This document shows, in pieces, positions 36,951-64,000 of a DNA stretch of 64,000 nt. A program made the position numbers and the translations under genes. The notes under the pieces are model-generated. The model had not been told where the DNA came from, did no database searches, and saw nothing but the letters and a program-made list of their open reading frames with translations. The DNA comes from Escherichia phage D6. How positions within the stretch are numbered: the first letter of the stretch is position 1; each line of letters starts with the position of its first letter. The stretch lies in sequence record NC_050154.1; one strand, given 5' to 3'.

Positions 36951-36992
36951 CATTTGTGTTAGAAAATACATATTAATTATCTAACACAAATG
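36951..36992. promoter_or_regulatory. palindromic pair of candidate C1-type operators just upstream of hrdC
   Basis: CATTTGTGTTAGAAAATACATATTAATTATCTAACACAAATG. Confidence 0.55.
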
Positions 36993-48817: not shown

Positions 48818-48839
48818 AAATGTTAGAAAACTAATTTAT
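48818..48839. promoter_or_regulatory. candidate C1-type operator upstream of the immI-like unit
   Basis: AATGTTAGAAAACTAATTTAT, 17/19 identical to the motif at 62787; overlaps the ref-like stop. Confidence 0.5.
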
Positions 48840-49409: not shown

Positions 49410-49472
49410 GATGGCTGCCTCTTACTTTTCAGCGATTTTTCTATGATTGATCAAAATGATTAGATATTCAAA

Positions 49473-49493
49473 ATTGATTTTCTAACACAAAAC
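49473..49493. promoter_or_regulatory. candidate C1-type operator in a divergent promoter region
   Basis: ATTGATTTTCTAACACAAAAC. Confidence 0.55.
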
Positions 49494-59239: not shown

Positions 59240-59347
59240 TCCCAGCAATTGCAAGACTGCATCTCGAGGATTTAAGGCACCAAGAAGTGGTATTCAGCAT
59301 CATTAAAACCTATAATTGCGTACACATAACGAGCACACGAGGTGTTT

Positions 59348-59569
59348 ATGCAATCCATTAACTTCCGTACCGCGCGCGGCAACCTTTCTGAAGTGCTCAA
59401 CAATGTTGAAGCCGGGGAAGAGGTTGAAATCACCCGCAGAGGCCGTGAGCCAGCAGTAATTGTTAGCAAGGCTACTTTTGAAGCCTACAAAAAAGCGGCG
59501 CTGGATGCCGAATTTGCATCCCTGTTTGACACCCTGGACTCCACCAACAAGGAACTGGTTAACCGATAA
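59348..59569 (+). CDS. phd: Phd antitoxin
   Basis: [73 protein letters not shown], matches P1 Phd as recalled. Confidence 0.97.
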
Positions 59570-59949
59570 TGAGGCATATATCACCGGAAGAACTTATTGC
59601 GCTTCATGATGCGAATATAAGCCGCTACGGTGGCCTGCCGGGAATGTCAGATCCGGGTAGGGCAGAGGCCATTATCGGGAGAGTTCAGGCCAGAGTTGCC
59701 TACGAAGAGATCAGCGACCTTTTCGAAGTCTCCGCCACCTACCTGGTGGCTACAGCGAGAGGGCATATATTCAATGATGCCAATAAGCGTACCGCGCTAA
59801 ACAGTGCGCTGCTATTTCTACGCCGTAACGGGGTTCAGGTATTTGATTCACCTGAACTGGCAGACCTTACTGTAGGCGCTGCGACTGGCGAGATATCTGT
59901 ATCTTCTGTCGCCGACACGTTACGTAGATTGTATGGTTCTGCGGAGTAG
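59569..59949 (+). CDS. doc: Doc toxin (Fic-fold kinase)
   Basis: [11 protein letters not shown] Fic-type motif; full-length match to P1 Doc as recalled. Confidence 0.97.
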
Positions 59950-59953
59950 ATTA

Positions 59954-60151
59954 ATGGCACGTAAATACAACAAGTTGTCCCGTGAAGCGTTAAAGATGCT
60001 TCTTGATGGCGTGAGTCGCCGCGAGGTAAAGCAATACCTGGTTGGTAAGCAAATTGGTGCCAGGACCGCTATTGCTGTGTTATGCCGTCAGGAAATGGTT
60101 GTGCTTAAACAGAGAATGCTTGGTAGCAGACAAAGTGCTTCCAGTATTTGA
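59954..60151 (+). CDS. hypothetical small protein downstream of doc
   Basis: Start chosen at MARKYNKL. Confidence 0.4.
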   Translation: MARKYNKLSREALKMLLDGVSRREVKQYLVGKQIGARTAIAVLCRQEMVVLKQRMLGSRQSASSI

Positions 60152-60156
60152 AAAGA

Positions 60157-60179
60157 AGCCCGCCATACCAAGCGGGCTT
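60157..60179. terminator. bidirectional terminator
   Basis: AAGCCCGCCATACCAAGCGGGCTT flanked by A- and T-runs. Confidence 0.7.
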
Positions 60180-60183
60180 TTTG

Positions 60184-60960
60184 TTATTCCACCTCTTCTG
60201 CCGCTGTATCATTGGACTGTTCTTCTTTGGCCCGTTCTGCAATCGCCGCACGGCATTTCGCCCTGGCTGTAGCGATTGCTTCTGCTCGCACATCGTCTGG
60301 AATCGTTGACGTGATATACATATCCAGTTCTTCGGCACGGAATACTGTTTGGTCCAGATATTCGCGTAGCATCCAGGTAAATTCGAAATCACACGCGATA
60401 ATCTCTGCGCTACCTTCTGCACCATTTGGGAAATGAATAAATGCCTGTTTAGCCAAACCGATAACACGACATGCGGTTGCCAAAACAGCGACAACCAGGT
60501 TTACATTTTCACACGCTACGGGCTGATTAACGCCGGAGATTACTCCATTTAACTGTCGGTTATATGGAAGGTAGTTTGAGATGCGTTCTACGCGCCATGT
60601 GCCAGTCAGGCTGCCATTCTTAAAGATAATTGGTGTAACGGATAGCCCAAGCTCGCGTATAAGTCGTTGCGCTATAGCAGGATCATTAAACATGTCTAAT
60701 GCTACACATTCGAAAGACTGTGCAAGGGTAAACAGTTCTTCCAGAGAGTAGTCTTTGCCCCTGGCGGTGATGTAACGATGAACGCCGCTTTCTGCATCGC
60801 TCCATATAGCTACGCCATGCTCTTCATTCAGTTCTTCATTAAAGCCGAGATATGTCATGATAGTGCGTTCAATCGTGTCAAACGGCAGTGACATGTCGGC
60901 GTTAACAGCCACCAGCAGGCCATTACGCAAGCGGTATTGAATTGCTTTAGTATTTTCCAC
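60184..60960 (-). CDS. hypothetical protein
   Basis: 258-aa ORF. Confidence 0.55.
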   Translation of the reverse strand: MENTKAIQYRLRNGLLVAVNADMSLPFDTIERTIMTYLGFNEELNEEHGVAIWSDAESGVHRYITARGKDYSLEELFTLAQSFECVALDMFNDPAIAQRLIRELGLSVTPIIFKNGSLTGTWRVERISNYLPYNRQLNGVISGVNQPVACENVNLVVAVLATACRVIGLAKQAFIHFPNGAEGSAEIIACDFEFTWMLREYLDQTVFRAEELDMYITSTIPDDVRAEAIATARAKCRAAIAERAKEEQSNDTAAEEVE

Positions 60961-60966
60961 GTTAAA

Positions 60967-61407
60967 TCACTCCACCACAAACCAGTCACATGCCAGTAAG
61001 TCGCCTACAGAAGGAACCCACGGAACAACTACACCTTGTGCATTTTTTAAGGCGAAATAAGCACCATACGGAACGAGGTCGCCGGGGAAATATCCCTTAA
61101 TGGCTTCCATTCGTGCCGGGTACTGTCCTTCAGGAACCAGCCAGCAGAATTGGTTTTCGCCGTTCCACCCGCGTCGAGCAACTTTCTTGCCATCCTTCAG
61201 CCACATCAGCGCGTCAGAAAAGTCGGCTGCTTCAAGGTCGATTTCTTCTTGCTGGGTGGTGATGCCACCAGCAGAAATAGTTACGCTCCCGGTAAGATTA
61301 ATCATCACGCCGTTGTCATCCGTAATGATGACCGTGGTTCCATTTTTTTTGTGAGCTTTGTATTTTGGAAGGAACTTAAAAAGCTCTTTCGTTGCCATGT
61401 TATTCAT
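60967..61407 (-). CDS. DUF2829-like protein (Tad2-type fold candidate) with N-terminal extension
   Basis: FSDALMWLKDGKKVARRGWNGENQFCWL in the C-terminal ~85 aa. Confidence 0.55.
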   Translation of the reverse strand: MNNMATKELFKFLPKYKAHKKNGTTVIITDDNGVMINLTGSVTISAGGITTQQEEIDLEAADFSDALMWLKDGKKVARRGWNGENQFCWLVPEGQYPARMEAIKGYFPGDLVPYGAYFALKNAQGVVVPWVPSVGDLLACDWFVVE

Positions 61408-61421
61408 AGTCTTTTCTCTGC

Positions 61422-61916
61422 TTATAACTTTTCGTACTGAAGCGGTGAACGCTTAATTTCAAAGTGGCCTTCCGATGTGCTACCAAAGCCACCATCACCA
61501 CGTTCCGTTTCGTTGAGTTCCTCAACCTCGACTAGTGAGACTTGTTCAACACGCTCAAAAATTCCTTGCATGACAGCCATTCCAGGCTTGAGACAAACGC
61601 CTTCCCCGCCGGGATCAGTAATCAGTTTTGCCATGATTTCGCCGCGATAATCGGAGTCGATAATTCCTACGCAGTTAGCCAGGCGAGTATGTTTTTTGCA
61701 GCCCAATCCGGATCGCGGATAGAGTTTCAGACACCAGCCGGGCGGGATCTCCATAGCCAATCCGGTGTACACCCACCAGCTTGAGGAAATTGCACCATTG
61801 CTATCGACACATGGTTTTATTTCAACAGCCTCAAAATCCATCGCCGCCGATCCGGAGGTGGCATAAGCTGGAAGTTTTGCTGCCGGATGTAGGCGTTTCA
61901 CTTTTACGTAAATCAT
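61422..61916 (-). CDS. dut: dUTP diphosphatase
   Basis: GIIDSDYRGE and RGDGGFGSTS dUTPase motifs. Confidence 0.92.
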   Translation of the reverse strand: MIYVKVKRLHPAAKLPAYATSGSAAMDFEAVEIKPCVDSNGAISSSWWVYTGLAMEIPPGWCLKLYPRSGLGCKKHTRLANCVGIIDSDYRGEIMAKLITDPGGEGVCLKPGMAVMQGIFERVEQVSLVEVEELNETERGDGGFGSTSEGHFEIKRSPLQYEKL

Positions 61917-62389
61917 TGTTTTTTAGCTCTCTGCGTGAAGGTGTAAACCCGACGTTTGATATGTGGAACGGTTGGAACAGGAAGACAGGAACTTTCAATA
62001 ACTCCTTGCTCCTCCAGCGATCGCACCGCCCGCAAGAACTGCGACGTGTCGCCGCCAAACTGGCGGGCATAGGTGCTGCCGTTATGAAGTATTTGAGCTA
62101 TTACCCGAGCTTTTGTCTGGCTGTCACGATATGCGAATAGCCGCACGGCCTCTTCTGGCGCAATCGATAACTGATAGCCTTTACCGGCACGGTGTCGAAT
62201 GAATCCATGCGCCAGTAGGTTTTTGAGTTCGTTACGAGTGCGAACAGATCCGTAATCCAGGAAGTGTGGATTGATAACGACTGGCTTAAACCATTCCGTA
62301 GGTGCTTTAGCTAATAGAGCTAACAGCTTCCCGGACAATCCTGGATAGGAAGACGGGTAACAATTCAGAGATGGGTAATAAGTTTTCAC
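61913..62389 (-). CDS. hypothetical protein
   Basis: 158-aa ORF coupled to dut. Confidence 0.5.
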   Translation of the reverse strand: MKTYYPSLNCYPSSYPGLSGKLLALLAKAPTEWFKPVVINPHFLDYGSVRTRNELKNLLAHGFIRHRAGKGYQLSIAPEEAVRLFAYRDSQTKARVIAQILHNGSTYARQFGGDTSQFLRAVRSLEEQGVIESSCLPVPTVPHIKRRVYTFTQRAKKQ

Positions 62390-62742
62390 CGACGCCCCCT
62401 TGCCGGATATCGACCTGCATTAGTATCCGGTGCAATAAAGCCGGTAGTGGGGCGAGTGAAAGCGAGATTAATCTTCTCGACCATAGTGCGATAATTTTCC
62501 TGATAGTGGGCCAGGAGTTTTTCGGCGGCAATGATGGTTACTTTCCGGACGTAGCTTTCTGCTTCCTCCAGATTTCGCCAGTTTTTTTCGAGGGTAAACA
62601 CAGGGACGGCCTCAAGCCCGGTCATGATGCCGAATACAACGACAGCATGACTGTTCTTAACACCAGCGGCGAAGGTTACGGTGTAACCATCCACCGTGAA
62701 GCGTCTTGATTCCGTGATTTGACTCTGCAAAGCACCCTCCAA
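62386..62742 (-). CDS. hypothetical protein
   Basis: 118-aa ORF, first gene after the operator-like motif. Confidence 0.5.
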   Translation of the reverse strand: MEGALQSQITESRRFTVDGYTVTFAAGVKNSHAVVVFGIMTGLEAVPVFTLEKNWRNLEEAESYVRKVTIIAAEKLLAHYQENYRTMVEKINLAFTRPTTGFIAPDTNAGRYPARGRR

Positions 62743-62786
62743 AATAGGCGAGGGTACTTTACAGCAAAGATATCAATCTAAAAAGA

Positions 62787-62807
62787 TGTGTTAGAAATTT
62801 AATTTAT
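62787..62807. promoter_or_regulatory. candidate C1-type operator, overlapping the recombinase stop
   Basis: TGTGTTAGAAATTTAATTTAT. Confidence 0.5.
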
Positions 62808-63832
62808 GAATCCATCAAGCGGCTATTAGCCCCCACAGACACACCGCCACGGCGCAGATACCGCATAAGTGTTTCCGGTTTCTTCCAGGTTCCTTCCTGC
62901 ATAATCTCCACCATAGACACCTGCTTTTCAGCCATATCGATAGCGGCCCCGACACGAGCACTATGCCCGGTCCACGTCCGGTATCTCCCTTTGTTTGGCG
63001 TGGCATCCCTTTTATTCAGCAACACCCAGGCGTCGCTGAATATTTTCTCCATTGCAGGTGCAGTAAGGGGCGTTGTCGTAATCCTGGCCTTATTGCTACG
63101 GTGTATCGGCGGGAACAGCACCGCGTCAGGATGTTCACGAAGCCCGGAAACATCCAGCCAGTCATTCAGCACAGCAGTAGTGCGACGGGAAAGCACCTTA
63201 TCAAGCCCGGCGGCGGTCGTTATTGTCTTCGTGTGTGAAATATGTAGCGTGACAGTGTCACCTGTTTGGTCCAGATCTCCTACACGAATACGCGAGATTT
63301 CCGACATACGCATCAGCGTATTGTATGCAACAAAGAGAAAAGCCCGGTTGCGCAGGTCCACCAGCCGTTCTGACCTGGACAACAGGACGTCGAGCAGTTT
63401 CAGGTCGTCCCATCGCAGCGGTATAGCCTGGCCTGTTCGTTCGCCTTTTTCCGTTGCCGCTTCGCGCCGGATACGCCGCATAGCCAGAGAAACACTTTTA
63501 TCATCCGAAAGTGGCGGAAGGCCACAATGAGAAAGCAGCATGTTAAGCATGGCGTAGTGCTTATCAATGGTGGTCGAAGCCAGATCGGCATCATGCAACT
63601 GAAGAAAATACTCGCGGGCCATTTCTGGTGAGATCGGAAACCAGGCAAGCTGGCGAGCGTGACACCAGCGCGCCCAGGAATGAAACACCAACCGGAGGTC
63701 GCGCAGAGTATTCGGCGCATAAGCACCCTGATCATTCATGAACCGCATAAAGTTTTCTGCGGCTTCCTGGTACTCTTTGCCAATGTTGCGCAGAAAACCA
63801 CCGGAACTGCCAGAGATAATTAATTCACTCAT
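62804..63832 (-). CDS. Cre-family tyrosine recombinase (Dre-like)
   Basis: 342 aa colinear with P1 Cre at reduced identity: HSWARWCHARQLAWFP, SVSLAMRRIRRE, GHSARVGAAIDMA; rox-like half-site follows. Confidence 0.9.
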   Translation of the reverse strand: MSELIISGSSGGFLRNIGKEYQEAAENFMRFMNDQGAYAPNTLRDLRLVFHSWARWCHARQLAWFPISPEMAREYFLQLHDADLASTTIDKHYAMLNMLLSHCGLPPLSDDKSVSLAMRRIRREAATEKGERTGQAIPLRWDDLKLLDVLLSRSERLVDLRNRAFLFVAYNTLMRMSEISRIRVGDLDQTGDTVTLHISHTKTITTAAGLDKVLSRRTTAVLNDWLDVSGLREHPDAVLFPPIHRSNKARITTTPLTAPAMEKIFSDAWVLLNKRDATPNKGRYRTWTGHSARVGAAIDMAEKQVSMVEIMQEGTWKKPETLMRYLRRGGVSVGANSRLMDS

Positions 63833-63984
63833 GAAACCATTTCACCTCTATATACAGATGACGCTACGCGAAAAATATAAAAATGACAGGGTAGCTATAA
63901 GTTAATTTTCAAAATACAAGCCTTTGATTGGAGGTACGTATTTTCAGTGATGTCAATACTGTTCATCTACACATGATTATAGCC

Positions 63985-64000
63985 TAACTTTAAATAATGC
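63985..64000. other. partial rox-type recombination site (first 16 bp, cut by window end)
   Basis: TAACTTTAAATAATGC equals the first 16 bp of rox (TAACTTTAAATAATGCCAATTATTTAAAGTTA) as I recall it. Confidence 0.6.

Follow-up and report, generated by a model that had tools for sequence, protein, structure and literature searches.

The window, the whole 64,000-nucleotide stretch of DNA under analysis, has an open reading frame on the minus strand at positions 60967-61407 that consists of an ATG start, 146 codons, and a stop. The encoded protein is identical to RefSeq WP_001557736.1, a "DUF2829 domain-containing protein" of E. coli plasmid NZ_CP122910.1, and belongs to PHROGs families phrog_872 and phrog_1048, neither of which has an assigned function. 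This Tad2-like gene is the fourth in a cluster of five minus-strand genes with the order orf114, orf158, dut, Tad2-like, and IsaA-like, which are joined by 4-bp overlaps or separated by gaps of 6 and 14 bp. The cluster begins with orf114 (D6 orf2; 62386-62730), which has a TTG start after GGAGGG and no family match, and continues with orf158 (D6 orf3; 61913-62389), which overlaps dut by 4 bp. The dut gene (61422-61916) encodes a 164-residue dUTPase (PF00692, E = 6.5e-15; phrog_135, E = 5.5e-62). The last gene (60184-60960) lies 6 bp downstream of the Tad2-like gene and encodes a 258-residue protein (phrog_2326, E = 5.6e-136) with 48% identity to P1 IsaA across 231 residues. It is followed on the same strand by a weak terminator-like hairpin (60158-60173), detected in a consensus scan whose terminator count did not exceed that of shuffled sequences. 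Searches of NCBIfam and PADLOC gave no match to the Tad2-like protein or its four neighbors, and the Pfam and PDB sequence searches with orf114, orf158, and the IsaA-like protein were also empty. Co-transcription is a natural inference because the genes are so tightly packed. The first-pass annotation had placed the Tad2-like gene in a dut operon, and its start indeed lies 14 bp past the dUTPase stop.

The cluster is flanked by the Dre recombinase gene (62804-63832, minus strand) and phd/doc (59342-59949, plus strand), and a humD-like gene is also among the neighbors in the window. The edge of the window upstream of dre has GCATTATTTAAAGTTA (63985-64000, minus strand), which presumably resembles half of the rox recombination site. 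Non-mobilizable plasmids of approximately 90 kb in E. coli and Salmonella match a 2.9-kb region at 100% identity. The region also matches the phage D6 immC record, which comprises c1, rox, dre, orf2, orf3, and dut, with rox placed between c1 and dre. The neighboring genes, the identity to the ~90-kb plasmids, and the immC match identify the window as part of a D6-like phage-plasmid of the P1 family; its phage-plasmid origin is certain. The match to the immC record (AY753669) ends inside dut and the record closes with a duplicated segment, so it is silent on a D6 Tad2 gene. The duplicated dut stretch after position ~7316 of AY753669 (L004 7331-7644) shortens the dut ORF of that record to 148 residues and has the look of an artefact of cloning or assembly.

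A candidate operator upstream of the cluster

The cluster had also been described as operator-controlled. The P1 C1 operator consensus, ATTGCTCTAATAAATTT, has no match in the window at up to three mismatches, so the P1 motif offers no basis for operator control. Another sequence does recur. The 17-mer TGTTAGAAATTTAATTT (62789-62805) is located 59-75 bp upstream of the orf114 start, where it overlaps the dre stop, and is present in four copies in the window compared to 0.37 expected. The other copies have two or three mismatches and are found at 48821-48837 and, on the minus strand, at 49471-49487 and 36970-36986. The copy at 48821 sits upstream of icd/ash immI-type genes, and a further copy is located 79-95 bp upstream of an lpa homologue on the same plasmid (L007 4406-4422). 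P1 presumably has C1-controlled operators at comparable places (Op51 and Op88). The recurrent 17-mer upstream of the cluster makes operator control plausible and may be regarded as a putative D6-type C1 repressor operator. A sigma-70 consensus scan of positions 59900-64000 found fewer promoter-like sites than in shuffled sequences and none that was convincing upstream of the cluster. The operon packing and the operator-like 17-mer together suggest that the Tad2-like gene would be expressed early. The repeated 17-mer TGTTAGAAAWTTAATWT is distinct from the P1 C1 consensus yet has its AT-rich half.

The Tad2 domain and its ligand pocket

The C-terminal part of the protein had been assigned to DUF2829, the Tad2 fold, from the motif ALMWLKDGKKVARRGWNG, which is present at residues 66-83. 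Profile HMM searches and a predicted structure, two of the checks proposed in the first-pass annotation, bear this assignment out. The domain occupies residues 62-146 (60970-61224, minus strand) by Pfam, PDB, and Foldseek evidence. PF11195, the "Thoeris anti-defense 2-like domain" formerly called DUF2829, matched residues 62-145 over essentially the full profile (positions 2-73 of 73; E = 7.7e-23) with a score of 81.3 bits compared to the Pfam cut-off of 25 bits. The match is far above chance level. A phmmer search of all PDB sequences returned Tad2 proteins exclusively: ModTad2 from a Myroides odoratus prophage (9eib/8v3e, E = 2e-20), HgmTad2/AcrIIA7 (7e-11), SPO1 Tad2 (3e-9), and SptTad2 (1e-8).

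AlphaFold2 was used to model the 146-residue protein as a monomer from an alignment of 60 relatives. The pLDDT is approximately 90 across most of the Tad2 domain and approximately 60 in a variable loop at residues 101-110. The 61-residue N-terminal segment is modeled with low to moderate confidence overall, including moderate values of 67-77 for residues 21-55. All 24 of the matches returned by a Foldseek search of the PDB at E ≤ 0.001 were Tad2 structures, and the best was ModTad2 with bound His-ADPR at 46% identity. By homology, the window protein is almost certainly a Tad2-family member. Stand-alone homologues of 85-90 residues with 65-77% identity occur in enterobacterial sequences, for example in a 609-kb Klebsiella aerogenes contig.

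The ligand contacts W25, N26, W73, S76, and D79 of SPO1 Tad2 align with W81, N82, W130, S133, and D136 of the window protein, and the HgmTad2 contacts W21, N22, G23, W87, S90, and D93 map onto equivalent conserved positions. Across the 60 aligned relatives W81, W130, and D136 are invariant and S133 is nearly so. Peripheral SPO1 Tad2 contacts on the adenine side and in the water network are changed (T78 to G135, T65 to N122, D67 to Q124, and H71 to V128), and specificity is therefore not readable from the sequence.

Tad2 was first defined in phage SPO1 as a tetrameric 3'cADPR sponge, and among its homologues the ligands are His-ADPR, 2'cADPR, N7-cADPR, cUMP/cCMP, or cyclic dinucleotides, frequently held in two separate pockets. 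The closest solved relative of the window protein, with its 46% identity spanning the entire domain, is ModTad2 (MoTad2; PDB 9EIB and 8V3E), which sequesters His-ADPR (the type II Thoeris signal), 2'cADPR, and cUMP/cCMP. The two proteins are alike in having a short β2-β5 insertion of the same length and the motifs PSV(S/G)D and GWNG. ModTad2 is a stand-alone protein of 88 residues, whereas the window protein has the additional 61 N-terminal residues. They also differ in several residues that line the pocket, at window residues 122-129, which read T/V/D/N/D/I/A/T in ModTad2 and N/A/Q/G/V/V/V/P in the window protein, and at ModTad2 S78, which is G135 in the window protein. The founding member SPO1 Tad2 (gp34.65; PDB 8SME, 8SMF, and 8SMG), which acts against type I Thoeris, has the same fold and the same core contacts, but it is a stand-alone Bacillus phage protein with 33-35% identity to the window domain. 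HgmTad2/AcrIIA7 (PDB 8KBI-8KBM) has the domain and the gcADPR pocket motif in common with the window protein. Its 41-residue insertion, which binds cGG and cGAMP, is missing from the window protein, and the alignment shows that the residues contacting cyclic dinucleotides are not conserved there, e.g. R31 aligns with V91.

The N-terminal extension is a deletion remnant

The first-pass annotation had described the Tad2-like domain as fused to an N-terminal extension of approximately 60 residues. The extension is present, with 61 residues preceding the domain, but it is no fusion partner in its own right. At the equivalent position, most related plasmids have a gene for a protein of 206-233 residues. 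Examples of this long form are QMJ35006.1 of CP057521 (L002 2568-3245) and J46_0048 of SJ46 (L006 3536-4381). Compared to the 678-bp allele of CP057521, the window allele lacks 237 bp in frame, and residues 21-99 of the long form are gone. The deletion falls between two directly repeated CAAAAA motifs in the long allele, and DNA alignment places the junction at 61345-61352 of the window. Residues 1-20 (61348-61407, minus strand) form an N-terminal leader common to the long allele. The beta-rich residues 21-55 (61243-61347, minus strand) are probably what remains of a module related to the phage L decoration protein Dec and align just after its OB fold. The segment can be placed more closely through the long form, whose residues 100-126 align with Dec 96-122 and correspond to window residues 21-47 (pLDDT 67-77), a possible counterpart of the beginning of the Dec spike. 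The OB-fold domain itself, homologous to Dec residues ~12-90, is absent from the window allele, which retains merely the first 20 residues and the post-OB segment of the N-terminal module. Judging from these alignments, the extension is a remnant left after loss of the core of a Dec-like domain.

An 80-nt probe spanning the deletion detected the same junction in 21 plasmid records, whose hosts are E. coli, Salmonella, and Shigella dysenteriae. Sequence near the junction has diverged among the carriers to 97.5% identity. At least 80% of the long gene is retained in 193 of 229 matching records. The Tad2 domain is in frame in independent rearranged alleles, namely the 146-residue deletion form (21 plasmids, three genera) and a dUTPase-Tad2 fusion. 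The fusion is a 241-residue protein (P0054) with 15 member sequences on four contigs from several isolates, in which dut up to ...NETERG is joined in frame to the Tad2-like gene at AGGITTQQEEIDL. It was apparently made by a deletion, as a second deletion allele that keeps the Tad2 domain.

A Dec-like OB module in the long forms

Over its N-terminal ~130 residues the long form shows homology to Dec, the capsid decoration protein of phage L, in a region that covers the OB fold and the start of the spike. In Dec, an OB-fold domain that binds the capsid is followed by a C-terminal segment, and in the trimer these segments build a three-stranded spike (PMC6449081, PMC11398494). The match to Dec had E = 0.0057 with a single sequence, E = 1e-5 with a full-length profile, and E = 9.6e-7 with a profile of the N-terminal region alone, which covered Dec residues 14-121. 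This last profile had no significant match in the PDB besides Dec. Lockin, Acb5, and TadIV-1 were considered as identities for the OB-like domain and rejected; their descriptions offer no link, and the N-domain profile matches Dec alone in the PDB. The literature search found no mention of this Dec-like module.

A HMMER scan of 1.84 billion representative sequences with the 135-residue N-terminal query (E ≤ 0.001) matched 2,129 clusters, and the matches listed mainly cover the OB-like part of the query. Many of these relatives are stand-alone proteins of 85-105 residues (e.g. P0139 and P0140). The domain is fused to Tad2 in P0135 and P0169 and, in one protein among the matches listed (P0138), to the Acb4-family domain PF13876. 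It has no Pfam family, and its PHROGs have no assigned function.

Tad2 has previously been seen fused to Acb4 and to PF21825 (Sequestin), and it was through fusions of this kind that Sequestin was discovered. Tad2 domains often carry a second small domain, and enterobacterial relatives of the window protein do so as well. P0061, P0070, and their relatives are close Tad2 homologues (~80% identity) from enterobacterial elements that have PF21825 at the C terminus, and they are dual-sponge fusions of the known type. The window protein has neither PF13876 nor PF21825; the partner in its long-form relatives is the Pfam-less OB-like domain. Since this domain is widespread, often stands alone, and occurs fused to Tad2 and, in one protein, to an Acb4-family domain, a pattern of the sort that revealed Sequestin, it is conceivable, as a tentative suggestion, that the lost OB domain is itself a ligand-binding sponge or scaffold domain. 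In that case the common 225-residue P1/D6 protein would be a dual-function counter-defence protein, and the 146-residue allele, as a natural derivative with Tad2 alone, could be used to tell the two activities apart. Alternatively, the OB-like domain may bind capsids.

Alleles and distribution

The long-form P1/D6 proteins are products of the same gene, located next to isaA, and their Tad2 domains are identical or nearly identical to that of the window allele; they keep the ~95-residue N-terminal OB-like domain, which the window allele has lost. In the P1-like element SJ46, the long-form gene lies between ssb and isaA with no dut nearby. The ssb gene of P1 is under the C1 operator Ossb. The Tad2-like gene and isaA travel as a pair in P1-like and D6-like elements. 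Comparison of window positions 60970-61347 with SJ46 revealed a sharp mosaic boundary: the Tad2 domain has two synonymous changes in 279 nt and no others, whereas the adjacent ~100 nt have 28 non-synonymous and eight synonymous differences. A near-identical domain beside a diverged segment argues for recent exchange of the Tad2 domain between the lineages.

Three versions of the Tad2 domain exist among the P1/D6 alleles, which are the window type, a type with a longer β2-β5 insertion, and an EWKG type, with EWKG in place of GWNG and VWLPSVDD in place of PWVPSVGD. The β2-β5 insertion is the most variable part of the domain in this set. The allelic changes sit in or beside the two ligand pockets described for Tad2 proteins, which suggests that the alleles may reflect diversification of ligand specificity.

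The window-type domain (at least 90% nucleotide identity) was found in 188 of 5,426 complete E. coli genomes, and 187 of its 193 places were on plasmids. In a 2025 preprint that applied DefenseFinder to 2,304 phage-plasmid contigs, "Tad2 AcrIIA7 (anti-Thoeris)" was reported for 93% of the D6-like elements and for 56% of the P1-like ones (10.1101/2025.09.12.675607). The D6-like copy is thus an uncharacterized new member of a well-described family that has already been annotated and catalogued. No experimental test of ligand binding or defence with any P1/D6 allele was found in the literature.

Discussion

The best overall explanation of the locus, at a probability of roughly 0.7, is a Tad2-family sponge that is co-transcribed with dut and encoded by an in-frame deletion allele with an intact Tad2 domain. 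The conserved pocket residues make the candidate signal sponge of the first-pass annotation the best reading of the gene, and the protein probably acts as a sponge for immune signals. The persistence of an in-frame Tad2 domain in the rearranged alleles, and its near identity between the window and SJ46, also speak for this reading. Solved Tad2 proteins suggest, by analogy, a homotetramer with pockets between subunits. These pockets would bind and sequester the nucleotide alarm signals of host TIR-type (Thoeris-family) defence, and with the signal removed the defence effector would never fire. The gene would be transcribed with dut in the five-gene cluster downstream of the Dre gene from a probable repressor-controlled promoter, and the product would be made early upon infection or induction. 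Since the nearest relatives of the domain belong to the ModTad2 clade, whose ligands include His-ADPR and 2'cADPR, ADPR-derived signals are the most likely ligands. The N-terminal remnant could disturb the tetramer, which Tad2 builds along helix α1.

In a related reading, the sponge mainly captures signals outside Thoeris in the second pocket, the one built with the β2-β5 insertion; these signals would be either Pycsar cCMP/cUMP or CBASS cyclic dinucleotides. The second pocket of ModTad2 also sequesters cUMP and cCMP, and the protein blocks Pycsar of E. coli; HgmTad2 binds cGG and cGAMP in the corresponding site; and the insertion is the region in which the three P1/D6 domain types vary most. 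However, the cyclic-dinucleotide contacts of HgmTad2 are not conserved in the window protein, and the insertion is short as in ModTad2 and SPO1 Tad2, whereas cyclic-dinucleotide binders have insertions of 35-41 residues. A mainly non-Thoeris sponge is rather unlikely on this balance. That the 146-residue allele is a decaying, non-functional remnant of a two-domain protein, with an ORF that persists since the deletion happened to be in frame, is unlikely too. The junction was found in just 21 plasmid records against the 193 of 229 that retain most of the long gene, the remaining N terminus is poorly structured in the AlphaFold model, and the dUTPase-Tad2 fusion and truncated forms reveal a locus prone to deletion. 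These observations are set against a Tad2 domain that is intact and keeps every conserved pocket residue, in a family whose canonical functional form is a stand-alone protein of 85-90 residues. The presence of the allele in three genera and the divergence near its junction also argue that it has been inherited for some time.

Two further readings were considered. The position of the gene adjoining dut fits a nucleotide-metabolism accessory of dUTPase, such as a deoxynucleotide binder, in place of an immune-signal sponge, and so does the in-frame dUTPase-Tad2 fusion of some isolates. In Bacillus phages JL and Shanette, the features under the tblastn match include dUTPase, which puts a DUF2829-type sequence at or beside the dUTPase gene. 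Such a role is nevertheless very improbable: the same gene in SJ46 lies between ssb and isaA, away from any dut; the dut part of the fusion is cut short at its C-terminal end where the Tad2 domain follows, which has the appearance of a further deletion; and no metabolic role for any Tad2-family member was found in the literature. Least credible is an AcrIIA7-like anti-CRISPR protein, a reading that draws on the sequence match to AcrIIA7 (8kbi, 9kzr), which has the same DUF2829 domain. To our knowledge, E. coli and Salmonella have no type II CRISPR-Cas, which counts against it. The anti-Cas9 activity of AcrIIA7/HgmTad2 was also not reproduced in vitro or in vivo by Li et al., who showed the protein to be a sponge.

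E. coli, Shigella, and Salmonella, clinical lineages included, commonly carry P1/D6-type phage-plasmids, and a Tad2-type sponge would aid the establishment of these elements in, or induction from, hosts with TIR-based signaling defences. The conceptual gain is small in that the family, its mechanism, and its occurrence in P1/D6 elements have been described. The added findings are modest: the extension arose by deletion, relatives have a Dec-like partner domain, the pockets vary among alleles, and reference P1 lacks the gene; some of them concern relatives and lie partly outside the window's own allele. The OB-like partner domain is uncharacterized and hence of possible use. The natural allelic series, which comprises the long form, the 146-residue deletion, the dUTPase fusion, the three insertion-loop types, and the GWNG-to-EWKG change, could serve to map ligand specificity.

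Reference P1 (NC_005856, L005 21569-22531) lacks the Tad2-like gene exactly, with the SJ46-type leader running straight into isaA, and therefore offers a ready knock-in chassis. A search of P1 IsaB and the surroundings of IS1 for a Tad2 remnant found none. P1 IsaA is annotated with a 57-residue leader at its N terminus, and the same sequence stands ahead of the Tad2-like gene in SJ46, so the start assigned to isaA in the P1 annotation probably lies too far upstream.
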